From an uncultured Candidatus Sumerlaeota bacterium (GTDB taxonomy: Bacteria > Sumerlaeota > Sumerlaeia > SLMS01 > CAYUNT01), in the NCBI GenBank assembly GCA_964446285.1, contig CAYUNT010000002.1:32-64031 (forward strand): DNA of 64,000 nucleotides, given 5' to 3'. Positions 40-63,193 of this stretch are shown one piece after another. Below the pieces are notes generated by a model. The model was not told the origin of the DNA. It saw nothing but the letters and a program-made list of their open reading frames with translations, and did not search any database. Position 1 is the first letter of the stretch, and every line of letters starts with the position of its first letter. The position numbers and the translations under genes were made by a program.

Positions 40-162
40 GTTGCCTGGCATGAACTGTTCAAAGTTACTGGTGGCACGGGCATCTTGCCCGTGATTCCGG
101 TGGCTTGGGCGTCTCGCCCAAGATTTTTCCGGCACTTTGAACAGTCCCTGAGTTGCCTGGCG
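40..162. repeat. MITE-like composite element: 12-bp terminal inverted repeats (gaactgttcaaagt / actttgaacagt) and flanking gttgcctggc direct motif enclose two tandem GC hairpins (cacgggca-tct-tgcccgtg and cttgggcg-tct-cgcccaag)
   Basis: Inverted and direct repeats read directly in the sequence. The second hairpin belongs to the ccggtggcttgggcgtcccgcccaag family also present at 39046-39072 and 62896-62927. Confidence 0.6.
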
Positions 163-3746: not shown

Positions 3747-4030
3747 TGGGCGCTGCCTCCTTTGCGATTTGGCTTGGTGTTTCCCGCCGGAGCGTGGCGA
3801 GATAGTTTGTTGTTTCAATCAACTTATACAAGCACCCCCCGCGCGCCGTCAAGCGCCAAAACACAAGCGCGAAAAATAATTTCACCCCGCAAGGCGCCCG
3901 AGGTTTTCCCGTTGCATTCCGCCCATTCTGGCAATAAGTGATGTTTTGCCGCGCCGGGATTCTCCGCCAGACTCCGCCCTCGGCGATGGCTGGCGGGCAA
4001 ACTTTAGCGCTGTTGCCGATGGGCAGAAAT

Positions 4031-4115
4031 GCCCCGTCACTTCGTTCCGGGTTCTGCAAGAACGAACAAGTCGCAAAGCACACTTCATGCGGAACCCCGA
4101 ACGAAGTGGCGGGGC
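4031..4115. repeat. long-stem imperfect hairpin element, copy 1 (about 27-bp stem: gccccgtcacttcgttccgggttctgca ... tgcggaaccccgaacgaagtggcggggc)
   Basis: Imperfect inverted repeat read in the sequence. A second copy with conserved arms but a different loop lies at 13189-13272. Confidence 0.6.
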
Positions 4116-5553: not shown

Positions 5554-8550
5554 TTATTTTTCCGCCAGTTTCTTCAATTCTTGCAATAGGTTCAGGGCTT
5601 CAAGCGGCGTCAGGCGGTCGATTTGCAGGCCTCTGAGGCGTTCGAGGGCCGGATGCGGCGGCGCGTCGAATAGCGAGAGTTGCACGGCGGACTGGCGCGC
5701 GGCCTCGAACTCGTCGAGAAACCCGAGCCGTCCGCCCCGGCGCCGCGGTTTGACCGGCGCGGACGAAGCCGCGGACTCTCCCGGCACTCCCTCCGCGTTC
5801 TCTGCGTTCCCCGCGTTTTGTGCGTTCTTCGCGTTCTTCGCGTTCTCTGCGTTTCCTCCCTTGCTCGCCCCCGCCCCGGAATCCACAGCAAGCGCCTGGC
5901 CGTTTTCAAGCGACTTGAGAATGGAGCGCGCCCGCCGGATCGCCCGCGCCGGCACGCCGGCCAGTTTCGCCGCGTAAATCCCATAGCTGCGGTCCGCCGC
6001 GCCATTGACGATCTTATACAAAAACACAATCCGCTCGGGGTCCTCGACGACCGCCACATTGTAATTGCGCAGCCGCGGCAGCCGCCCTTCGAGGTCGGTC
6101 AGTTCATGATAATGCGTCGCGAAAAGCGTTCGCGGACGCCGTCCGGGCGTGTTGTGCAGGTGTTCGAGCACGGCCCAGGCGATCGAAATGCCATCGTAGG
6201 TCGAAGTGCCGCGCCCGATTTCATCGAGAATCACAAGGGATTTGTCCGTGGCGTTGTTGAGGATGTTCGCCGTTTCGAGCATCTCGACGAGGAACGTTGA
6301 TTGCCCGCGCGCCAAGTGATCCATCGCCCCCACGCGCGTGAAAATGCGGTCGAGCAGCGCAATATCCGCCTCGCGCGCTGGAACAAACGACCCCACATGG
6401 GCCATCAGGGCGATCAACGCCACCTGGCGGATATAAGTGGATTTTCCGGCCATGTTCGGACCCGTGATGAGGCCGATCTGGCGCGTGTCGGAATCGAGCC
6501 GCGTATCGTTGGGCACAAACGGCGCATCGACCTGCACGGCTTCGAGCACGGGGTGGCGCCCGTCGCGGATTTCGATGCGCCCGTCATCGTTGATGCGCGG
6601 ACGCACGTATCCGCCCGCCAGCGCCGCTTCGGCCAGCCCAAGCAACGCATCGAGCCGCGCAAGCAGCCGTCCTTGCGCCAAAATCGCCTCGACCTGCGAC
6701 GCCGTCTCCAGGCGCAGTTCCTCGAAAAGCCGCGCCTCCAGGCCGTTGATCCGCTCCTCGGCGTGGAGGATGATTTCTTCCTTTTCCTTGAGTTCGGGCG
6801 TGATGAACCGCTCGCCGTTCGCGATGGTCTGGCGGCGCTGATAGTCGGCGGGCAAGTCGCCGATCTGGCGCAGTTGGGCGTTGGTCAGTTCAATATAATA
6901 GCCGAAAACCTTGTTAAATCCGACCTTCAGGTTGGGCAGATTGAGGCGCTGGGCCTCGCGCGCGCGGAACGCGGCGATCCAGCCTTTCGTGTCATGCGCC
7001 ACCGTCTTGATTTCATCGAGTTCGGCGTTCCAGCCCGGACGGATCACGCCGCCATCGCGCGCCGTGAGGGGCGGATCGTCCGTGAGGGCGCGGCGCAGGC
7101 GGTCTCGCAGCGGATCGAGCGGGTCCAGCCCTTCGCGCGTCGCGGCAAGCAATTCCGAGCGCGCCGGTTCGAGCGCGGCGGCCAGGCGCGGCAGACGGTC
7201 GAGCGCGGCGCGGATGGCCGACAAATCGCGCGGACCGGCCCGCCCGCAGGCCACGCGGCTCGCTACGCGCTCAAGGTCCGGCAGCCCCGCCAGCGATTCG
7301 GCCGCGCGCGAACGCAACGCCAGCGAATGGAAGAATTCCTCGACGGCATCGAGGCGGCGTTCAATTTCCGCGGCGCGCCCAAGCGGCGACAAAACCCACT
7401 GGCGCAGCAACCGCCCGCCCATCGCCGTGCGCGTGCGGTCGATCACGGCCAGGAGCGTTCCGTCGCGCCCGCCCGAATGCAGATTGCGCACAAGTTCGAG
7501 GCTGCGCTGTGTCACGGCGTCGAGCACCAGGCAGTCGTCCGTGCGCCAGACTCGTAACTCGCGCAGGTGGGCAATCGCGCCCTTTTGCGTTTCCTGGAGA
7601 TAATCGAGCGCCGCGCCCGCCGCCCCAAGCGCCACGCTGAGATGCTCCGCGCCAAATCCTTCGAGGCTTTGGACGCCAAAATGGCGCTGGAGGAGGCGGC
7701 GCGAACGCGCGGGATCAAAGCGGTCGGCGGGGCGGCGCGTCAGGCGCGCGCGCGATTCGCCGATGCCTCCCACCGCGCCCGCTCCTCCCCCGCCGCTTCC
7801 GATTCCGCCTGTGGCCGCCGCCACAAACGCCTCGGGGAATCCTTCTGGCAAAAGGATTTCCGCCGGTTCGAGGCGCACGAGTTCCGAAAACACCTCTTCG
7901 CGCGCGCGCGGGCCTTCGAGTTCCGTGACGGCGAACGCGCCCGTCGAAAGGTCGGCGATGGCGATGCCGAACACGCCCTTTTCCGAAAAAAGTTCCAGGG
8001 AAGCGGCATCTGTGCGCGCGCTCGCTGTTTCCGGCGGCGAGACGCAGCCGCTCCCCCTCAGGCCGTTTTCCTCCCGTCCAAACAGGTCTTCCAAACCCGC
8101 AGGGGCGCCTGCCCCGCAAGTTTCATTTTCCGCCCCTCCGCGCGCGGGCTGCCAAGTGATCGCCATCAGGTAATTGTTCGCGCGATCATCCAGAATCCCC
8201 GGTTCGAGCGCCGTCCCCGGCGTGATGACCCGCACGATGTCGCGCCGAACCAGGCCTTTCGCCTGTTTCGGGTCTTCCATTTGCTCGGCGATGGCCACGC
8301 TGCGGCCCGATTTGACGAGTTTCGCCAGATAACTTTCGATCGCGTGATACGGAACGCCCGCCATCGCCACTTCGCCGTCCACGCCCGCCGTTTTGCGCGT
8401 AACGACGATGTTCAGCAGCCGCCCGGCCTCGTCCGCGTCCTCGAAGTAGGTTTCGTAGAAATCCCCGCATCGAAACAGCAATATGCAATCCGGGTGCTCT
8501 TGTTTCAAGCGCCGGAACTGGCGCATCATCGGAGTTGCCAAATCCTGCAT
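5554..8550 (-). CDS. mutS: DNA mismatch repair protein MutS (unusually long, with low-complexity inserts)
   Basis: Mismatch-binding N-terminus (MSMQDLATPMMRQFRRLKQEHPDCILLFRCGDFYETYFEDA), Walker A GPNMAGKST and the C-terminal HTH region. Low-complexity segments include NAKNAKNAQNAGNAENAE. Confidence 0.9.
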   Translation of the reverse strand: MQDLATPMMRQFRRLKQEHPDCILLFRCGDFYETYFEDADEAGRLLNIVVTRKTAGVDGEVAMAGVPYHAIESYLAKLVKSGRSVAIAEQMEDPKQAKGLVRRDIVRVITPGTALEPGILDDRANNYLMAITWQPARGGAENETCGAGAPAGLEDLFGREENGLRGSGCVSPPETASARTDAASLELFSEKGVFGIAIADLSTGAFAVTELEGPRAREEVFSELVRLEPAEILLPEGFPEAFVAAATGGIGSGGGGAGAVGGIGESRARLTRRPADRFDPARSRRLLQRHFGVQSLEGFGAEHLSVALGAAGAALDYLQETQKGAIAHLRELRVWRTDDCLVLDAVTQRSLELVRNLHSGGRDGTLLAVIDRTRTAMGGRLLRQWVLSPLGRAAEIERRLDAVEEFFHSLALRSRAAESLAGLPDLERVASRVACGRAGPRDLSAIRAALDRLPRLAAALEPARSELLAATREGLDPLDPLRDRLRRALTDDPPLTARDGGVIRPGWNAELDEIKTVAHDTKGWIAAFRAREAQRLNLPNLKVGFNKVFGYYIELTNAQLRQIGDLPADYQRRQTIANGERFITPELKEKEEIILHAEERINGLEARLFEELRLETASQVEAILAQGRLLARLDALLGLAEAALAGGYVRPRINDDGRIEIRDGRHPVLEAVQVDAPFVPNDTRLDSDTRQIGLITGPNMAGKSTYIRQVALIALMAHVGSFVPAREADIALLDRIFTRVGAMDHLARGQSTFLVEMLETANILNNATDKSLVILDEIGRGTSTYDGISIAWAVLEHLHNTPGRRPRTLFATHYHELTDLEGRLPRLRNYNVAVVEDPERIVFLYKIVNGAADRSYGIYAAKLAGVPARAIRRARSILKSLENGQALAVDSGAGASKGGNAENAKNAKNAQNAGNAENAEGVPGESAASSAPVKPRRRGGRLGFLDEFEAARQSAVQLSLFDAPPHPALERLRGLQIDRLTPLEALNLLQELKKLAEK

Positions 8551-8563
8551 ACTCACATCTCTT

Positions 8564-8608
8564 CACTCACAACTCGCCACTCACAACCCACAACTCACAA
8601 CTCAAAAC
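8564..8608. repeat. (GTTGTGR)n heptamer array (minus-strand orientation) in the mutS leader, overlapping the stop of the M50 protease gene
   Basis: The plus strand reads tcactcacaactcgccactcacaacccacaactcacaactcaaaac. The same heptamer family occurs at 38937-39014 and 62829-62892. Confidence 0.6.
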
Positions 8609-9249
8609 CCAATAATCCACCCCGTCAGCCCAATGAAAAAACCGATCAGCGAATGAAACAGCGCCCGCGTCATGGGAAACATGAATAGAAGCATTAGAAT
8701 CAAAATTCCAAAACGTGAGGCCATAAAGAAATACTGATACCATTCCTCGTGGTTTTTGATGACAAGGTGCCATAGGACATGGCTGCCATCGAGCGGCGGA
8801 ATCGGGATCATGTTGAACACCATCAGGACAATGTTAATGATGATCATGTATCCGATGATCGTGGCGGCGGCGTCGGGCAGATGGCCTGGCACAATGATTT
8901 TCCAGATTTTCAAAAGAAGGACCGTCAGCAAAACCAGCAGGAAGTTGGAAGCCGGACCCGCGATGGCCACAATCATTCCCCAACCCGGTCGGCGGAAATT
9001 TTCCTCCTGAACAGGCACGGGTTTGGCCCATCCGAAGAGGAATGGCACGTTGGAGAAAATGGCAAGGAGCGGCAGAATAATCGTGCCAATCGGGTCGATG
9101 TGGGCGATGGGATTGAGCGTCAGACGGCCCTGGTAGGCTGCCGTCCGATCTCCGCCCCAATACGCCGTCAGCGCGTGCGAAAACTCATGCACAGTCAGCG
9201 ACAGCAAAAACACGGGAAACATCAAGAAGGCTTCGGCTGGGATATTCAT
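8602..9249 (-). CDS. site-2 protease family (peptidase M50) membrane metalloprotease
   Basis: HEFSH (HExxH) motif in the first TM region and a multi-TM profile. Confidence 0.75.
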   Translation of the reverse strand: MNIPAEAFLMFPVFLLSLTVHEFSHALTAYWGGDRTAAYQGRLTLNPIAHIDPIGTIILPLLAIFSNVPFLFGWAKPVPVQEENFRRPGWGMIVAIAGPASNFLLVLLTVLLLKIWKIIVPGHLPDAAATIIGYMIIINIVLMVFNMIPIPPLDGSHVLWHLVIKNHEEWYQYFFMASRFGILILMLLFMFPMTRALFHSLIGFFIGLTGWIIGF

Positions 9250-9538
9250 GAGGAAGCTCGGAGGCGCAACTCCTTGCGTGGCATTGCATTTCCAGGGGCG
9301 GACGTGTTCCCGGAAGGCGTCGCAAATCGCACGCCCTGCCGGGTCTTTTCCTCATGCCCGCGCGCCAAAGTCAACGCCATTGCCCCGGATTGCTTATTCC
9401 CAAAAATGAATAATCACCGCAAAAAACGCAAGACACCAACACCACAAGAGAAGATTTTACCACGAAAGGCACGAAAATAACGAAAAAAGAATGTATCTTT
9501 CTTCCTTTTCGTTCCTTTCGCATTTTTCGCGGCAATAA

Positions 9539-13188: not shown

Positions 13189-13272
13189 GGGAAAAAGCCC
13201 CGTCACCTCGTTCCGGGTTCTGCATACGCGGATGCGTCCTGGATCACTCTTTATGCAGAACCCCGAACGCAG
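13189..13272. repeat. long-stem imperfect hairpin element, copy 2
   Basis: gccccgtcacctcgttccgggttctgca ... tgcagaaccccgaacgcagtaaggggg. The arms match copy 1 (4031-4115) and the loop differs. Confidence 0.6.
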
Positions 13273-13577
13273 TAAGGGGGTGAAAGCGGTTTGGGTCGGC
13301 AATAGTGTCAAGATACGCCCCAAATGACCAAACCGTATCCCCGCGCAAATACCGTTAAGTTTGAATAAAGCCGCGGGCAAACGGACAAAACCTCTTGATA
13401 GATTGTCACGATTCGGCATAAAGGCAAAAGCGAGATGTGGGGCGGCTGTGTCTTGCGATTCTATATGATCGAGGAACCATTCTGCCGAAAAGGGATGTGC
13501 GTGGGGTAACTCGAAGAGGGTAGAATCATGCCAGACCGGTTCGCCCGCCGATTTTTATCATAAGGAGTCTCGGAATC

Positions 13578-22707: not shown

Positions 22708-22839
22708 CGCGGCTGGCGCTAAGGCTCGCAAAGGCCTGAAGAGCGAGTGCGGAGCCTCGCGATCCCACTGCGACGCGGCTGGCGCTAAGGCCCGCAAAGG
22801 CCTGAAGAGCGAGTGCGGAGCCTCGCGATCCCACTGCGG
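22708..22839. repeat. tandem direct repeat, 2 x 66 bp (gcggctggcgctaaggcYcgcaaaggcctgaagagcgagtgcggagcctcgcgatcccactgcgRc)
   Basis: Two near-identical adjacent units read in the sequence. The core gcgagtgcggagcctcgcgatccc recurs at 56838-56860 (reverse complement), 57345-57370 and 63011-63036. Confidence 0.7.
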
Positions 22840-23252
22840 CGCGGTCCGCGCCTGGAGAGGCGCAATGGCCGTTTCGCGGCTTTCCTCCGGCCTGGGCGGC
22901 CTTTTGCGCGCCGCTCCTGGCCAATCCACAAACGTTCTTTCTATCGGGCCGCCTCACGCGGATCAACGGTTTGTTGATCAGCGGCGGCGACTCGGGAGTT
23001 GACTTTCCCGGACGCCAATCGGAGCGTTTCCAACTGCGCGCCCTGACCTTGTCGCAATCCACCCTTGGGAAAGAACCGGAAAGCAACCCGAGAGAAGAAA
23101 AGGACGAAAACGACCCCAAGAACCTAAACGATAAATAAGGGCAAGAGAACCGCTGAAAAACTACCCCCCACTGACCACTGACCACTGCCCGCTTCTTCTT
23201 TCACAACTCTCAACTCATCCCCCCAAACTCGCTCTCCCCGGAGGCCCCGTTC

Positions 23253-37319: not shown

Positions 37320-39233
37320 CTATGTTTTTTCGTGCAGCGGAGGAACATACACGCGGTAGTGCGGGCACCCATCGAAAGGCTCTGTGATCCAGCGTCCGCC
37401 GGGCAAATGACGTTCGATTTCCTGCGGAATCGCCGCCGGGCAGGGGTCCTGGATAATAAACAGCAAACGCCGCCCGGCGCGCTCGGGATGCCATTTCGCC
37501 GAGCGCGTTTTCCATGTGGAAAACGGCACAATCACCGCTGTGCGATCGCGAAATCCGGGATTCCAGGTGTTCATCTGGCTGTCGAAGGGGAAAAGGACTC
37601 CGCTTTCGTTGTGCGTGATGAATTCATACTGCGCGAGGTTGGTATTCATAAAATACGCCAAGCTCGTAAAGGGCGCGTAGTTTTTTATGAAGTCGTCTTT
37701 CCCCGACAGGACGCGGTCGTAATAGAGTTTGATATTATATTGCGCGAGAAAAAGCGCGGCAGCAACTGCGAGCACCGCCCCCATGCGCGCGGCGGGCCGC
37801 CATCGGATTCGCGTCAGCCCCCAAAGCGGCAGCGCCAGCGCAAAGGCACAAATGGAAATCGCCAAGTGCACGCGCTGATGATAGGGCGGATAGGGCAGCA
37901 TCGTCAGTCCGCCCAGAATCGCGTTGTTGAGCAGGAAGAAAAGAATCAGCAATAAAAACGCGGGGGTTCGCCATCGCCAGAGCATCCACAACGCGCCCAC
38001 TGCGGCAAGCCAGAATCCGTAACGGTCGAGGAATCCGATCGGCGTTGAGTAGGCATGATAGGCGTTGGGACCGCTATAATAGCCGCGGAAGGCGTTGCCG
38101 ATGTTCTTCGCCGTCGCGACGATCACCGAGCGCGTCTGATAGCTGCTTAGCGCCCAGTCAAGCTGCGGTTTGTAGAGGAGTTGCGTGCTGGTCTGGCGGT
38201 AGGACGTTAGATACGGATGCGTTTCAAGGTCGTGGCGCAACTTGACGAGCACGAGCACGTAGATCGAGAGAGTGATGAGCAAGGGGGCGTTGCGCCGAAG
38301 CCAGGTTTTGTCCTCGATAAAACGAATTCCCACATAGATGGCAAGCGGCAGGAGAATAAGGCGGCCGCTGAAATACTGCATCGTAACAACAGCCGCTAGA
38401 ACGGCCGCCAAAAGCCCAAAGAGCGCCTTGGCCCACCAGCGCCGCGCTTTTTCGCCCGCCAGAAACGCCCACGCCGCCGCGATATACACAGCCGAGGTTT
38501 CGTTGAAGTATCCGCCCTCGACGGACATAAACAAATTGTAATGCATGAACGCGCCCAGAAACACCACCAGGAGCGCATAAGCGGGGCCGAGCATCCATCG
38601 CGCAAAACCATAAAACACAAGCAGCATCATGACGCTTCCGGCCACACTGGCGGCGCGGCACCACGCGTCGGAATGCGTCTGGAACCATGCGTGCGAATAC
38701 GGCAGCGCACGCAGCCAAAAGACCAGATTATACATGCCAGAATGCGACACGCCGAGGTCCCAGGGCATGTCTTTCGAGGCGTGCTGATTGAAAACGAAAC
38801 GCCAGGCGGTATCGACTTCGTCGCCATTGAGCGGCACAACAAAACGCGAAAGCGCCGGAACGCACACAAACACAAACGCGCCTAAAACCAAGAGAAGAAC
38901 AGCGAATTCCGATAACAGGCCATGCCGCCGAGGAGAGGTTGTGAGTTGCGAGTTGTGAGTTGTGGGTTGTGAGTTGTGAGTTGTGGGCTGCGAGTTGTGA
39001 GTTGTGGGCTGCGAGGGTGCGGCGGAAGGCGCAGGCGCTGGGTTTCCGGTGGCTTGGGCGTCCCGCCCAAGGTTCCCTTCTTGCTTTTTTACGGAAATTT
39101 GCGGCGCCTGCGCCTGTCTGGCGGTTTCCAATTCACCTGGCAGCAAATCGTCGAAATCGTCATAATCCCGAATTGGAGGCATGGAATTGCGCGAAAGCGC
39201 GGAATTGGGATTTGTATCTGGAGGAAAGGCCAT
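37320..39233 (-). CDS. large polytopic membrane protein, GT-C-like (ArnT/PMT-type glycosyltransferase fold suspected), with a repeat-encoded N-terminal TTHNSQP tract
   Basis: More than ten hydrophobic helices plus a large C-terminal soluble domain. The N-terminal region is encoded by the (GTTGTGR)n array and the GC hairpin in-frame (GRDAQATGN ... QPTTHNSQPTTHNSQ). Confidence 0.55.
   Translation of the reverse strand: MAFPPDTNPNSALSRNSMPPIRDYDDFDDLLPGELETARQAQAPQISVKKQEGNLGRDAQATGNPAPAPSAAPSQPTTHNSQPTTHNSQPTTHNSQLTTSPRRHGLLSEFAVLLLVLGAFVFVCVPALSRFVVPLNGDEVDTAWRFVFNQHASKDMPWDLGVSHSGMYNLVFWLRALPYSHAWFQTHSDAWCRAASVAGSVMMLLVFYGFARWMLGPAYALLVVFLGAFMHYNLFMSVEGGYFNETSAVYIAAAWAFLAGEKARRWWAKALFGLLAAVLAAVVTMQYFSGRLILLPLAIYVGIRFIEDKTWLRRNAPLLITLSIYVLVLVKLRHDLETHPYLTSYRQTSTQLLYKPQLDWALSSYQTRSVIVATAKNIGNAFRGYYSGPNAYHAYSTPIGFLDRYGFWLAAVGALWMLWRWRTPAFLLLILFFLLNNAILGGLTMLPYPPYHQRVHLAISICAFALALPLWGLTRIRWRPAARMGAVLAVAAALFLAQYNIKLYYDRVLSGKDDFIKNYAPFTSLAYFMNTNLAQYEFITHNESGVLFPFDSQMNTWNPGFRDRTAVIVPFSTWKTRSAKWHPERAGRRLLFIIQDPCPAAIPQEIERHLPGGRWITEPFDGCPHYRVYVPPLHEKT
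38937..39072. repeat. composite repeat: (GTTGTGR)n heptamer array (38937-39014) plus GC hairpin ccggtggcttgggcgtcccgcccaagg (39046-39072)
   Basis: Read directly in the sequence. The same array-plus-hairpin arrangement recurs at 62829-62927. Confidence 0.65.
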
Positions 39234-57062: not shown

Positions 57063-57493
57063 GCCGCCAGAAGATTCACCGCAGAGGCGAGGAGAACGCA
57101 GAGTTTTTTCCTTATCTCTTGTTCGCGCGCGTTCGCGTGTGCACTGCAATCTCCCACGCGCCGCAAGTTTCTTTCACTCCGCCGTTGTGTGCGAGCGTTT
57201 TCTCGCCATTGGAGGGATGTGCGGATTGACACCCTCTGCCAGTTTGTTATGGTAAGTTCACAAGGCGGTTCGAGGCGCGCAATCCGGATTGCGCGTGCGG
57301 ATGCGCCAACCGCTCCCCGCCAGAAGAGCGCGAGTGAAGAAAAAGCGCGAGTGCAGAGCCTCGCGATCCCAGGCGATCCTGGCCGATCCCCCCAAGCTCC
57401 GCCTTGCGCCATGCGCCGGCAAATCGGACTCGCATCGAATCTGCCCCAGCCGTCTTGAACCAATCCCTCATCCCCCAAAAGGAGGACGCTGCC

Positions 57494-58317: not shown

Positions 58318-58655
58318 TGGGCGCGGGACGACGCGATGCCTTGCGCCGCCGGGCGCAAATCCGCCGCGAACTCGCCGAAACCGAGGCGCGGATGGGTGTT
58401 GTGTTTCGCGCCATGGAAAGCGGAACACGCGACGCGCTCAGCCCCGTCCGGTTCGTGCAGCGCCGTCCGGTGCTTGGATTTGCGCTGGCTGTGGTTGGGG
58501 GACTTCTCCTCAGCCGCCTGCTAGGCAAACGCGCCTCGGGCGAGGTGATCCGGCGCACAGGGCGCTCACTGCTCGGTCGTGTGGTCGCCAGCCAGGCCAC
58601 GCGCCTTCTCGCCCCGCATCTCGAATCCCTTGCCGCGCGGTTTATACGCTTTTGA
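58314..58655 (+). CDS. YqjK-like small protein (Arg-rich N-terminus, C-terminal TM)
   Basis: ATGA start-stop overlap with the upstream gene. 113 aa with hydrophobic segment LGFALAVVGGLLLSRLL. Confidence 0.45.
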   Translation: MMGAGRRDALRRRAQIRRELAETEARMGVVFRAMESGTRDALSPVRFVQRRPVLGFALAVVGGLLLSRLLGKRASGEVIRRTGRSLLGRVVASQATRLLAPHLESLAARFIRF

Positions 58656-58686
58656 TGACAGCAAAATAACGAACAATAAATCCTCC

Positions 58687-60453
58687 ATGACCTCTACCAC
58701 CCGTTCCTCGATTGCCCCCGCCCTGTTGATGGCGGGGGTAATGTTTGCCCTCGCGTGGTCCGTGGCCTTTGTGCCCATCCGCGCCGACAACGATTGCTGG
58801 TGGCACGTCAAAACCGGCAAATACATCAGCGAACACGGAATCCCCAGCCACGATGTGTTTTCTTTCACGGCGGAAGATCACAAGTGGGACAACCACGAAT
58901 GGCTGACCGAGGTGGCGATGTGGCAGATGTATCGCCTGGGCGACGAAACGGGCCTGGGCGGATGGCGCGCGGTGATTTTGCTGACGGCGCTTCTTTCGAT
59001 GGCCTCGTGGGCGGCGGTGGCGTGGCTCGCGGGACGGCGAGTGCGCTATTGGCCGGTGGCGCTCTTCGTGGCAATCTGGGCCATCGCCATCGGACGCCGC
59101 ACGCTCTATCCGCGCCCGCCCGTGGTTACGTATGCGCTTTTTGCAATCTTCCTGTGGATATTGTATGAGGTGCGATTGCGGCGCTGGCCGCGCAAACGCC
59201 TCGCCTGGCTCGTTCCGCTGACCGCGCTTTGGTCCAATCTGCATGGCGGATGGATGGCCGGGCTGGTGGCCGTGGTGTTTTTCGGATTCGAGTCGGCGCT
59301 CGCGACCGCTTTCGACTGGTGGCGGCAATGGCGCGCCGCGAAAAGGAACCTGTCAGACATTCAAAAAGGAAGACTAGGACGGGACGTCCAAGCCACCGGA
59401 GATCTTGGGCTAGATGCCCAAGCCGCCGGAAATGCGCGACTTGACTTCCACCGCAAAGACTTCATCGCCTACAGTCTCGTCTTTCTCGGGTGCGTGGCCG
59501 CGTCGTGCGCCAATCCCTTCGGGTGGCGGCTGTATCTGCTGCCCGCTCGCGTGATGAAAGACCCGAATCTGACGCGCCTCATCGGCGAATTGCAGCCTCC
59601 GAACTTGTTTTACACGGTAGCGTTTCTCGTCGCTCTGCTCGCGGCGGGCGCGGGATTCGCCCTCGTGCGGAGGCGGCCCGTCGCGCTGCCGGACGCGCTT
59701 TTGTTTCTCTTTTGGGGATGGCAGGCCGGGCAGCACGTCCGCCACCTGCCGATGTTCGCCGTTGCCGCCGCGCCGCTGCTCGCCGTGCTCGTGCGCCAGG
59801 GATTGGCGGATTTCCGCACGCACCCGGCCATGTTGAGCGCGGGGTCTGGCCTGCGCCGCGCGATCCATTGCGCAACGCCCTGGGCCATCGCCGCCGCGGG
59901 CGCCGTCCTTGCGGTCTATGTGGCGCTCAATCCGCGCGAAGCCGATTCGTATCCGGCGCGCAATCGCGACCTCCTGCGCGGAACCGACTACATCGCGGAG
60001 AATTATCCGGCCGAGGCGTGCGATTTCGTGCTGGCGAATGACATTCGCGGACGCCTCTTCAATCTGAATCACTACGCCGGCTATTTGATTTGGCGTCTTT
60101 CGCCCGAACACACGCGCGTATTCACCGATTCGCGGTTCGACATCTTTGGCGGGCGCTTTATCGAGGACGAATATGTGATCCGCCGCGGCGCGGAATCGGC
60201 GCGCGAGGGCGTCCTGTGGCAAGAACGCCTCGACGCCTATAAAATCGACTGGATTCTCATTCCGGACGCCGAACCGCTCAACGAACGTCTTTCGGCGCAT
60301 CCCGAGGCGTGGGAACTCGTCTATCGCGACGGCCCGTGGTCGCGCCATCCGGCGGGATTCTCGATTTGGATTCGCGTCACGCCCGAGACGCAAGCCATGC
60401 GCGACCGCTGCCGCCGCGCCCTCGCCGCCATGTCGCCCGAGCCAAAGGAATAA
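58687..60453 (+). CDS. large polytopic membrane protein, GT-C-like, carrying two in-frame copies of the GC-hairpin repeat
   Basis: About ten hydrophobic helices and a C-terminal soluble domain. The internal segment GRLGRDVQATGDLGLDAQAAGN is encoded by 59376-59432, which matches the hairpin repeat family. Confidence 0.55.
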   Translation: MTSTTRSSIAPALLMAGVMFALAWSVAFVPIRADNDCWWHVKTGKYISEHGIPSHDVFSFTAEDHKWDNHEWLTEVAMWQMYRLGDETGLGGWRAVILLTALLSMASWAAVAWLAGRRVRYWPVALFVAIWAIAIGRRTLYPRPPVVTYALFAIFLWILYEVRLRRWPRKRLAWLVPLTALWSNLHGGWMAGLVAVVFFGFESALATAFDWWRQWRAAKRNLSDIQKGRLGRDVQATGDLGLDAQAAGNARLDFHRKDFIAYSLVFLGCVAASCANPFGWRLYLLPARVMKDPNLTRLIGELQPPNLFYTVAFLVALLAAGAGFALVRRRPVALPDALLFLFWGWQAGQHVRHLPMFAVAAAPLLAVLVRQGLADFRTHPAMLSAGSGLRRAIHCATPWAIAAAGAVLAVYVALNPREADSYPARNRDLLRGTDYIAENYPAEACDFVLANDIRGRLFNLNHYAGYLIWRLSPEHTRVFTDSRFDIFGGRFIEDEYVIRRGAESAREGVLWQERLDAYKIDWILIPDAEPLNERLSAHPEAWELVYRDGPWSRHPAGFSIWIRVTPETQAMRDRCRRALAAMSPEPKE

Positions 60454-61422: not shown

Positions 61423-61740
61423 GCAGGGCAAAAGGGGCGCCGCGCGCGACGCGGAAAAGCCGATTGCCCTCGGGCGCGGGGGCTGCTACGCAGTGATGCC
61501 ATCGCGCGCCGAGCGAACGCCTCTGGATTTCGCCCGGCCTTTCCTTCTCATCGTTCCTGGAATCCCGGCGATGGGCCGAATTCCCGCTGGTTCTTTGCCC
61601 CCTCCTCCCCGCCGCCCATCCAAAACGCCAGCGCCCGCTGCGCCGCGGAGAAACATAGCATAATGAAAATAGCCGCCATCGTATATTTGGTATATATTGT
61701 GGTTTTGGTGATATGGGGATGGATCGCGCGGCGCTGGCGC

Positions 61741-62796
61741 ATGGTCGGACGCCATTTTGTATATCAGATATTGATCGCCGGCGCGTTCTTCATGCTCCTG
61801 CCGTTTTATTGGATGCTCATCACGTCGTTCAAAGACGCCTCGCAATCCAACACCTTCCCGCCCAACTGGCTTCCGGTGCGCGCGCGTAATTACGTCGAGC
61901 ACGAGGGCCGCAAAGAACGTGTCGATATTGTAAAACGAGGCCGCAAGCCCACGGACCCCGTGCAGGTGGTTCCCGATTCGGCTGTCGGATTCCAAAAGGA
62001 AATCAGCCCGAGCGGACACATTGTGCATCAGAAGGGCTGGCCCGAAAAGGCAGTGTTCAGCGTTCCCGCGGACGCCATCAGCCAGCGCATCGAAATGTCG
62101 CTTTCGCCGGTCAATTTCATCGAGGCGTGGTATGCGCCCGAGGTTTCGACGCTCGGCGCGGTGAATTTCGGGCGATATTTCTGGGTTTCGATCTACACAG
62201 GCGTGCTCTCCACCGCCGGAACGCTCATCACGGCCGCGCTCGCCGCCTATGCATTCTCCCGGATGCGATTCATCGGAAAAGGACTGTTTTTTTACATCGT
62301 TCTGGCAACGATGATGGTCCCCGGCCAGGTTTTGCTCATCCCGGACTTTATTATTCTCGACATGCTCCACTGGCTCGATACGCCGCTCGCCCTGATTGTG
62401 CCGTGGCTGGCATCCGTATTTACCATTTTCCTTATGCGGCAGTTTTTCATGACGATCCCCGACGACCTCTGGGATGCGGCGCAAATCGACGGCGCGGGGC
62501 GATTCCGGTTCCTTTGGCAGGTCGTGACGCCGCTTTCAAAACCCGTATTCATCACAGCGGGGATTTTTACATTTCTTGCCCAATGGAACTCGTTGCTGTG
62601 GCCCTTGATCGTCACCTCCAGCCCCGAGATGCGAACGCTCATGGTCGGCTTGCAGACCTTCAACCAGGAGGCTGGCTCCGACTATCATCTGCTGATGGCC
62701 GCATCGTCGCTCGCCATCCTGCCCGTAGTGCTCTTGTTCTTCTTCCTGCAGCGATTCTTCATCCAGGGCATCGCGCGCGCCGGACTGAAGTCCTAG
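61741..62796 (+). CDS. carbohydrate ABC transporter permease (MalG/UgpE-like) with a large periplasmic insert; no adjacent partner genes
   Basis: EAA-loop region (WDAAQIDGAGRFRFLWQVVTPLSKP) and six TM segments. An alternative longer start at 61663 adds an extra N-terminal helix. Confidence 0.75.
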   Translation: MVGRHFVYQILIAGAFFMLLPFYWMLITSFKDASQSNTFPPNWLPVRARNYVEHEGRKERVDIVKRGRKPTDPVQVVPDSAVGFQKEISPSGHIVHQKGWPEKAVFSVPADAISQRIEMSLSPVNFIEAWYAPEVSTLGAVNFGRYFWVSIYTGVLSTAGTLITAALAAYAFSRMRFIGKGLFFYIVLATMMVPGQVLLIPDFIILDMLHWLDTPLALIVPWLASVFTIFLMRQFFMTIPDDLWDAAQIDGAGRFRFLWQVVTPLSKPVFITAGIFTFLAQWNSLLWPLIVTSSPEMRTLMVGLQTFNQEAGSDYHLLMAASSLAILPVVLLFFFLQRFFIQGIARAGLKS

Positions 62797-62828: not shown

Positions 62829-62927
62829 AGTTGTGAGTTGAGAGTTGTGGGTTGTGGGTTGTGGGTTGTGAGTAGTGGGTTGTGGGTTGTGAGATTTTCC
62901 GGTGGCTTGGACGTCCCGTCCAAGATT
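62829..62927. repeat. composite repeat: (GTTGTGR)n heptamer array (62829-62892) plus GC hairpin ttccggtggcttggacgtcccgtccaagattc (62896-62927)
   Basis: Read directly. Lies just after the permease stop in the same architecture as 38937-39072. Confidence 0.65.
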
Positions 62928-63193
62928 CTTTGATGAGTTTTTAGATAGGCTCTTTTTACCTCCAACCAGTCCCAGGTTGAGCGCTCACGCGCTCAGGGCA
63001 TGCGGAAAATGCGCGAGTGCGGAGCCTCGCGGTCCCAGGTTCGGCAGAGCGAGCGCGAAATTTCCCTGCAAATCGAATGATGCGCTTCGCGGGGCTTGCC
63101 TTGGCGGACCTCTTCATGCAGTGTCGCGCGAGATGCGGCTATTAAGGCGTTCCCAGGGCGCCAAATACTCCACCCAACAGGAGGCGCAACCAG

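Follow-up and report, generated by a model that had tools for sequence, protein, structure and literature searches.

A REP-like hairpin and a dispersed heptanucleotide repeat share intergenic and coding sites in a probable Candidatus Sumerlaeota genome

Introduction

Repetitive extragenic palindromic sequences (REPs) with a 5′ GTAG tag have been described in the Planctomycetes-Verrucomicrobia-Chlamydiae (PVC) group, GTGG being the usual tag in Opitutus terrae; they prefer positions downstream of open reading frames (ORFs), and they are likely RNA elements (Di Nocera et al. 2013, PMC3733652). Many of them are intragenic and in frame, each encoding 20 to 30 residues, and O. terrae has the most intragenic GTAG-type REPs within that survey (PMC3733652). 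Here we analyze a 64,000-nucleotide stretch (the window) of contig CAYUNT010000002.1 (assembly GCA_964446285.1) from an uncultured Candidatus Sumerlaeota bacterium, in which a small REP-like hairpin and tandem arrays of the heptamer GTTGTGR occur at several loci and twice stand side by side, once within a membrane-protein gene. An earlier reading of the window from sequence alone (the sequence-only reading) had treated the two as one composite repeat family. We consider them, more likely than not, to be two separate small repeat kinds of non-coding origin that came to lie in one permissive DNA segment.

Dispersed heptanucleotide repeats form a second relevant class: the GGGAATC heptamers of Xanthomonas and the GGGGA(C/T)T heptamers of Nostoc favor positions no more than 50 bp from sense-strand stop codons and are occasionally intragenic (Rehm et al. 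2015, PMC4692102). Comparison sequences are cited below by number, with L for DNA loci and P for proteins. In Nostocaceae, small dispersed repeats (SDRs) embedded in tandem heptamer repeats or minitransposons are said to have been described by Elhai and coworkers in 2008. The first-described Rickettsia palindromic elements are longer than the hairpin treated here, about 100 to 150 bp.

Results

The repeats of interest, and the gene that holds one pair of them, are as follows (positions in the window).

37320–39233, minus strand: host gene for a 637-residue polytopic membrane protein, whose homologue P0002 has a weak PMT_2 match
38938–39014, plus strand: heptamer array 1, 11 GTTGTGR units with variants GTTGCGA and GCTGCGA; antisense within ORF 37320–39233, where it is translated as SQPTTHNSQPTTHNSQPTTHNSQLTT
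39015–39043, plus strand: spacer from array 1 to the hairpin; the gene strand encodes NPAPAPSAAPS
39044–39077, plus strand: REP-like hairpin unit (family D3) with GTGG tag at 39049–39052, stem CTTGGGCG at 39053–39060, loop TCC, and stem CGCCCAAG at 39064–39071; the gene strand encodes NLGRDAQATGN
62829–62893, plus strand: heptamer array 2, 9 units, sense orientation
62897–62930, plus strand: REP-like hairpin unit abutting array 2, stem 62906–62924 (CTTGGACG/CGTCCAAG)
8557–8608, minus strand: heptamer array 3, sense orientation, without a hairpin
23201–23214, minus strand: short array remnant of two units, GTTGAGA GTTGTGA, in a divergent intergenic region
66–128, plus strand: two hairpins head to tail, first a CACGGGC/GCCCGTG variant, then CTTGGGCG/CGCCCAAG
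59374–59430, minus strand: head-to-tail hairpin doublet, antisense and in frame within ORF 58579–60453 (plus strand), read as GRLGRDVQATGDLGLDAQAAGN

On inspection of the sequence, the four loci named in the sequence-only reading (38937–39072, 62829–62927, 8564–8608, and 103–121) are present as it described them. A search with the 26-mer CCGGTGGCTTGGGCGTCCCGCCCAAG, allowing up to 3 mismatches, gave 4 matches versus 0.00 expected, at 97, 39046, and 62899 on the plus strand and at 59374 on the minus strand; the copy at 59374 and a variant hairpin at 68 are additional to that reading. The 14-mer GTTGTGRGTTGTGR, allowing up to 2 mismatches, matched the window 24 times versus 0.59 expected from dinucleotide-preserving shuffles, and Tandem Repeats Finder reported 9.9 heptamer copies at 38938–39006 and 9.3 at 62829–62893.

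The hairpin has the anatomy of a REP. Its 8-bp stem and 3-nt loop form a palindrome of the short kind (20 to 40 bp) that defines these elements, in a repeating unit of about 29 nt, and GTGG or GCGG stands at the 5′ foot of the stem in all 6 units, as the GT[AG]G tag does in REPs; these units lie at 4 loci within the window. Between the copies at 39053 and 62906 a G-C pair is exchanged for an A-T pair, a compensated change. Relatives elsewhere were collected with the loose pattern GGYGGCWYGGRCRTCYNGYCCRWG, which itself required GGYGGC and which matched at least 118 loci; GGTGGC prevails among the fetched copies, within the GGYGGC that the pattern imposed. Among the matches listed, relatives fall in Planctomycetota, Verrucomicrobiota, Kiritimatiellia, Sumerlaeota, Acidobacteriota, and others, and inverted pairs are common. 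The stems of the 37 distinct variants listed alternate between A-T (25) and T-A (6), between C-G (13) and T-A (13), and between G-C (16) and A-T (10); these double changes were not imposed by the search pattern and are the compensatory substitutions that characterize REPs. In one Planctomycetales locus (L059), inverted doublets of the family hairpin stand to either side of a Y1_Tnp (IS200-like) ORF, a layout that reads as the classic arrangement of a REP-associated tyrosine transposase (RAYT).

The sequence-only reading had called the element REP-like, and its GTGG tag, 8-bp palindrome, compensatory stem changes, and relatives flanking a Y1 transposase bear this out: judged by its sequence and that of its relatives, the hairpin is a member of the known multi-phylum class of GTGG-tagged REPs. 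Like the published GTAG/GTGG REPs, it is a short palindrome with a 5′ GT[AG]G tag, which is GTGG as in most GTAG-20 elements of O. terrae; it is dispersed, often downstream of ORFs, occurs singly, in dimers, or in groups, and sometimes lies in frame (PMC3733652). Hairpin relatives flank a Y1 transposase in both cases, whereas the stem variant CTTGGGCG and a Sumerlaeota host are absent from that survey. The doublet at 66–128 folds with a z-score of -4.3 and lies in a shell resembling a miniature inverted-repeat transposable element (MITE) at 49–150, whose inverted ends are 17 nt long and which is flanked by 13-nt direct repeats at 40–52 and 152–164. A metagenome scan for the exact hairpin variant gave one match, L124, where positions 40–180 hold four to five head-to-tail hairpin units at a spacing of about 33 nt, without a heptamer array.

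The arrays, of 11, 9, and roughly 7 units, together with a remnant of 2 units, form a heptanucleotide simple sequence repeat of at least 3 copies at multiple loci. Array 2 begins 33 nt past the stop codon (62796) of the plus-strand ABC permease gene 61663–62796. Array 3 takes up all of the spacer that separates the start of mutS (GTG at 8556 or ATG at 8550) from the TGA of an M50-type peptidase ORF (8602–9249, minus strand); this TGA falls in the first degenerate unit of the array. Two of the four arrays (2 and 3) therefore start at, or no more than 33 nt from, a sense-strand stop codon, and the other two (38938–39014 and 23201–23214) do not fit this placement. The peptidase ORF has an HExxH motif; the long ORF opposite it (8779–9480, plus strand), which has no Pfam match, is probably spurious.

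These properties fit the known class of dispersed heptanucleotide repeats, to which we would assign the GTTGTGR arrays. As with the GGGAATC repeats of Xanthomonas, the heptamers of Nostoc, and the short tandemly repeated repetitive sequences (STRR) of Calothrix (PMC4692102), the 7-nt unit is genome specific, tandem, and scattered over loci that are mostly intergenic and near sense-strand stop codons, with a minority intragenic, and slippage is the suspected origin. The unit here is GTTGTGR and is only partly G-tract forming; its four loci were examined, and no length variation was seen. Across some 800 kb of comparison loci from the PVC group, Sumerlaeota, and Acidobacteriota (L004–L121, matches listed), period 7 is the commonest tandem-repeat period (55 arrays with 3 or more copies); the heptamer unit differs genome by genome. 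Contigs of relatives with 50 to 60% protein identity (L125–L130, about 55 kb) contained no GTTGTGR arrays and no tagged hairpins, so both expansions look recent in the lineage. The earlier description of the repeats as genome specific thus stands for this heptamer and falls for the hairpin, which belongs to a multi-phylum family.

Three further heptamer tracts were noted. A perfect (CAGTGGT)3 tract at 23168–23187 adjoins the GTTGTGA remnant at 23201–23214, so the genome contains a second type of heptamer. An identical CACAACY motif occurs in many short predicted proteins and, in frame, in the EPSP synthase gene of an unrelated AT-rich contig (L001); that gene has in-frame (AACCAAC)13.7 and (CCCACAA)22.3 arrays at 1140–1235 and 1437–1592 and an extra short array near its start, and its Pfam EPSP_synthase match is kept. 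In a Tepidisphaeraceae metagenome-assembled genome (MAG; L009:205–289), (GAGTTGC)4 lies opposite its complement (GCAACTC)4, some 25 nt away, in the interval from a stop codon to the following start; together the arrays form a long hairpin of heptamers, and their unit is close to the GTTGCGA variant of the window.

The sequence-only reading held array and hairpin to be coupled. A single composite mobile element, comparable to a MITE or to a bacterial interspersed mosaic element (BIME) and transposed as a unit, would explain why the order and relative orientation of array and hairpin are equal at 38938–39077 and 62829–62930. The two lie no more than 50 nt apart at 2 of 5 window hairpin loci versus 1 of 133 copies elsewhere (matches listed), an enrichment with a Fisher p of about 0.003 in a post hoc test; the sole outside case among the matches listed, in Humisphaera (L049), has a similar layout (stop codon, array, hairpin) built on another heptamer. 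Even so, such an element appears improbable. The spacers differ (31 versus 5 nt), as does the internal order of units in the two arrays, and the pair has neither terminal inverted repeats nor target duplications. The parts also occur singly, arrays at 8557 and 23201 and hairpins at 66–128 and 59374–59430; the one metagenome match of the exact hairpin is a hairpin-only cluster; and none of the 133 listed related hairpins adjoins a GTTGTGR array. In addition, the spacer at 39015–39043 may be a native Pro/Ala-rich linker, since NPAPAPSAAPS loosely aligns with PAEAARLEPPPA of homologue P0002. The composite family is thus unproven. Both permissive segments are small, one a linker of some 60 residues and the other an intergenic region of 196 nt, so that co-occurrence within them forces adjacency.

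Several observations nevertheless weigh against two separate repeat kinds, or against the modes of spread that such kinds would imply. The ratio of 2 of 5 to 1 of 133 exceeds simple independence, with order and orientation the same, and is suggestive of a link, and the layout at L049 matches that of the window pair. Both hairpin doublets in the window are direct, head-to-tail pairs rather than REPINs, in which two inverted REPs stand a short spacer apart. No RAYT gene was detected in the window by tblastn, which leaves mobilization in the host genome unshown, and slippage was observed in no comparison.

The pairing can also be set beside the SDRs of Nostocaceae. As there, a hairpin of about 25 nt stands beside heptamer arrays and also in a MITE-like shell (here 62829–62930 and 49–150, respectively). 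The window hairpin differs in flanking the array without interrupting it, in carrying a REP-type GTGG tag, and in belonging to another phylum, and only two cases are at hand. Conceivably, heptamer arrays and small hairpins are mechanistically linked across phyla, with arrays serving as preferred landing sites for Y1-mobilized REPs or with the processing of REP ends seeding heptamer slippage. We regard this as a long shot; if true, it would explain the pairing in the window, in Humisphaera, and in Nostocaceae, where SDRs lie in heptamer repeats.

At the gathering threshold, Rfam had no match anywhere in the window, and a tRNA scan found none. Composite folds on both strands, compared with shuffled sequences, gave z-scores of -0.97, 0.24, 0.05, and -0.94, with only the hairpin doublets standing out. 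A structured composite RNA was dropped as a candidate because composite folding was no better than shuffled. A terminator scan scored the hairpin at 62906–62924, with its T-rich tail, as terminator-like, and did not call the copy at 39053–39071. The pair might be a functional 3′-end module, in which the array provides stops in three frames and possibly a G-rich structure while the hairpin and its T-rich tail terminate or protect the mRNA. Besides the terminator-like score, this would account for the T-rich tails on all window hairpin copies, the position of arrays 2 and 3 in sense orientation after stop codons, and the equal layout at L049, and it would agree with the preference of REPs for positions downstream of coding regions and their likely role as RNA elements (PMC3733652). 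We nonetheless judge a module of this kind unlikely, since just 29 of the 139 family members listed (21%) carry 5 or more T among the first 10 bases past the stem, the copy at 39053 goes unscored as a terminator and lies antisense inside a gene, the composite folds (z -0.97 and 0.05) are no better than shuffled, Rfam gives no match, and array 3 stands without a hairpin. Most likely these are two types of repeat, tolerated and for the most part selfish or neutral, and some hairpin copies may act as 3′-end elements.

ORF 37320–39233 has four homologues along its length, among them P0002, a protein of 632 residues with 50% identity to the window protein. An N-terminal motif upstream of the repeats, RDYxDFDxLxP...ETA, is common to both proteins; 11 of its residues are identical in P0002, 7 of these 11 with different codons, which points to conservation at the protein level and indicates that ORF 37320–39233 is a genuine gene. 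A downstream start that would leave the repeats outside the gene was rejected because the motif upstream of them is conserved at the protein level. Translation confirms the earlier reverse-strand reading of this ORF, GRDAQATGN...QPTTHNS. The repeats follow the conserved N-terminal RDYDDFDDLLPGELETA motif and precede the first hydrophobic stretch; the latter is presumed to be the first membrane helix, as read from the sequence rather than computed.

In a protein alignment, both the LGRDAQATGN segment and the QPTTHNS repeats are missing from P0002, and the N termini of P0003 and P0004 are shorter; the repeats thus add about 37 repeat-derived residues that are specific to the lineage. The proposal that such repeats are tolerated as a coded low-complexity linker is upheld by this genuine host gene, whose upstream motif P0002 conserves with synonymous codons. 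Used as a query, the 57-residue repeat-coded segment gave 4 weak, repeat-only matches in a word-indexed protein search and 40 matches in an exhaustive representative search, all to the QPTTHNS-like part, and the hairpin peptide was found in none of the 15 sequences inspected among these 40. Many have the look of translated simple-sequence DNA, and eukaryotic sequences may be among them.

The orientation of array 1 follows from its stop content. (GTTGTGA)n has TGA in all three frames, while (TCACAAC)n is free of stops in every frame, so that arrays rich in the A-type unit can survive within genes only in antisense; the hairpin sequence is open in all six frames. Coding array 1 has an identity of 0.93 at lag 21 versus 0.80 at lag 7, and intergenic array 2 shows no clear excess (0.88 versus 0.86). 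The lag-21 excess suggests that growth of array 1 after its insertion was limited to 7-codon (21-nt) steps, and its sequence indicates that the coding array grew by such in-frame steps only.

The sequence-only reading had named the arrays as candidates for slipped-strand variation, in which a 7-nt indel would shift the frame at the N terminus. As a contingency locus, the array would switch the membrane-protein gene, or its N terminus, on and off by 7-nt slippage. An imperfect 7-nt array does lie in the 5′ part of a membrane-protein gene that may encode a glycosyltransferase, and in some pathogens phase variation is reported to be driven by heptamer repeats (PMC8262952). Such a switch is nonetheless most improbable here. 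Array 1 does not differ between the window and three contigs independent of it (L003, L122, and L123), despite point differences nearby, nor among all 5 members of its 90% protein cluster. No copy-number variation is found across the four near-identical assemblies and no length differences among these strains and cluster members, which are all at least 99% identical; because the strains compared are so close, this absence is weak negative evidence. The units are also only about 80% alike at lag 7, and such interruptions suppress slippage; the 21-nt higher-order period suggests that only frame-preserving changes persisted; and arrays of the GTTGTGR type are mostly intergenic. Neither frameshifting slippage nor copy-number variation was therefore borne out.

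The hairpin occurs in frame in a second membrane-protein gene, ORF 58579–60453 (plus strand), which has 299 homologues, many of the named ones annotated Candidatus Sumerlaeota; this annotation points to the likely phylum of the window. Here the doublet at 59374–59430 occupies a length-variable loop, and homologue P0011, at 64% identity, lacks the segment. The two host genes both carry the hairpin antisense and share its reading frame (LGRDAQATG). Among the matches listed from other genomes, hairpins lie in open frames with Pfam domains spanning them or on both sides, in genes for a protein kinase, PurL, an Lhr helicase, a DUF7948 protein, a BlaR1-type peptidase, and valyl-tRNA synthetase. The first five of these are at loci L113, L083, L119, L063, and L077. 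The sixth is in a Planctomycetales MAG (L059:7100–7800, minus strand), where the valyl-tRNA synthetase reading frame remains open across some 240 inserted residues, which include a Y1_Tnp (RAYT-like) domain between inverted hairpin doublets that are read as GTAFQAV..TGRMxVP. It is unusual for a transposase to lie in frame within an essential gene.

Frame use is uneven across 50 long frames that span a listed hairpin (20, 10, 9, 4, 4, and 3), the rare frames being those that code for Trp, Cys, or His. This unevenness, the use of the LGRDAQATG frame in both host genes, and a frame open across about 135 nt of repeat would all be expected if the repeat-coded peptide were a selected flexible Thr/Pro/Gln-rich spacer rather than tolerated DNA. 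We think selection of this kind very unlikely: homologues lack the segment or have unrelated sequence of other length in its place, and the frame bias fits a purifying removal of harmful frames equally well.

Other small repeats are present in the window. A second family, GCGAGTGCGGAGCCTCGCGATCCCA, has its own short palindrome and copies at 22739–22767, 22805–22833, 57343–57371, and 63009–63037. The intergenic region of the 62906 hairpin also holds one copy, 85 nt beyond that hairpin, and two lie within a 66-nt tandem duplication at 22708–22839. An element of 88 nt, whose long ends are complementary (CCCCGTCACTTCGTTCCGGGTTCTGCA...TGCGGAACCCCGAACGAAGTGGCGGGG), occurs in two copies that are 75% identical (4027–4114 and 13193–13280) and, from its sequence, may be a MITE.

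Discussion

The explanation we favor starts from what was observed directly, namely the anatomy of the repeats, their coding status, their family relationships, and their absence from homologues. The hairpin would be a GTGG-tagged REP, a palindrome that can fold as a single strand and is of the type mobilized by RAYT-class Y1 transposases, and (GTTGTGR)n would be a lineage-specific dispersed heptanucleotide repeat that grows and shrinks by replication slippage. Both would gather at the ends of genes and would be tolerated within genes where they read open and encode a harmless, disordered peptide. At 38938–39077, they would lengthen the linker from the N-terminal motif to the first hydrophobic stretch by those approximately 37 residues; the orientation of the array would have been forced by its stop content, and after its entry only 21-nt (7-codon) duplications would have survived. 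The adjacency of the two repeats most likely reflects shared permissive sites, to which an insertion bias of REPs toward heptamer tracts may add.

The in-frame copies recall the Rickettsia palindromic elements, which are likewise palindromic repeats in frame in functional genes, where they add a peptide segment (PMC3733652). Those elements are without a heptamer component, and the likeness is one of description.

For RAYT-type transposition, the pairing of array and hairpin would bear on target choice if it proved systematic; at present it is only a lead. Within genes, stop-codon content dictates the orientation of the arrays. The findings extend GTGG-tagged REPs and dispersed heptamers to a probable Sumerlaeota genome, in a phylum known here only from metagenome assemblies. 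They also provide two clean, homologue-controlled cases in which repeat DNA appears to be translated as a protein linker, and for annotation they counsel caution, as ORFs that cross such repeats can be genuine.

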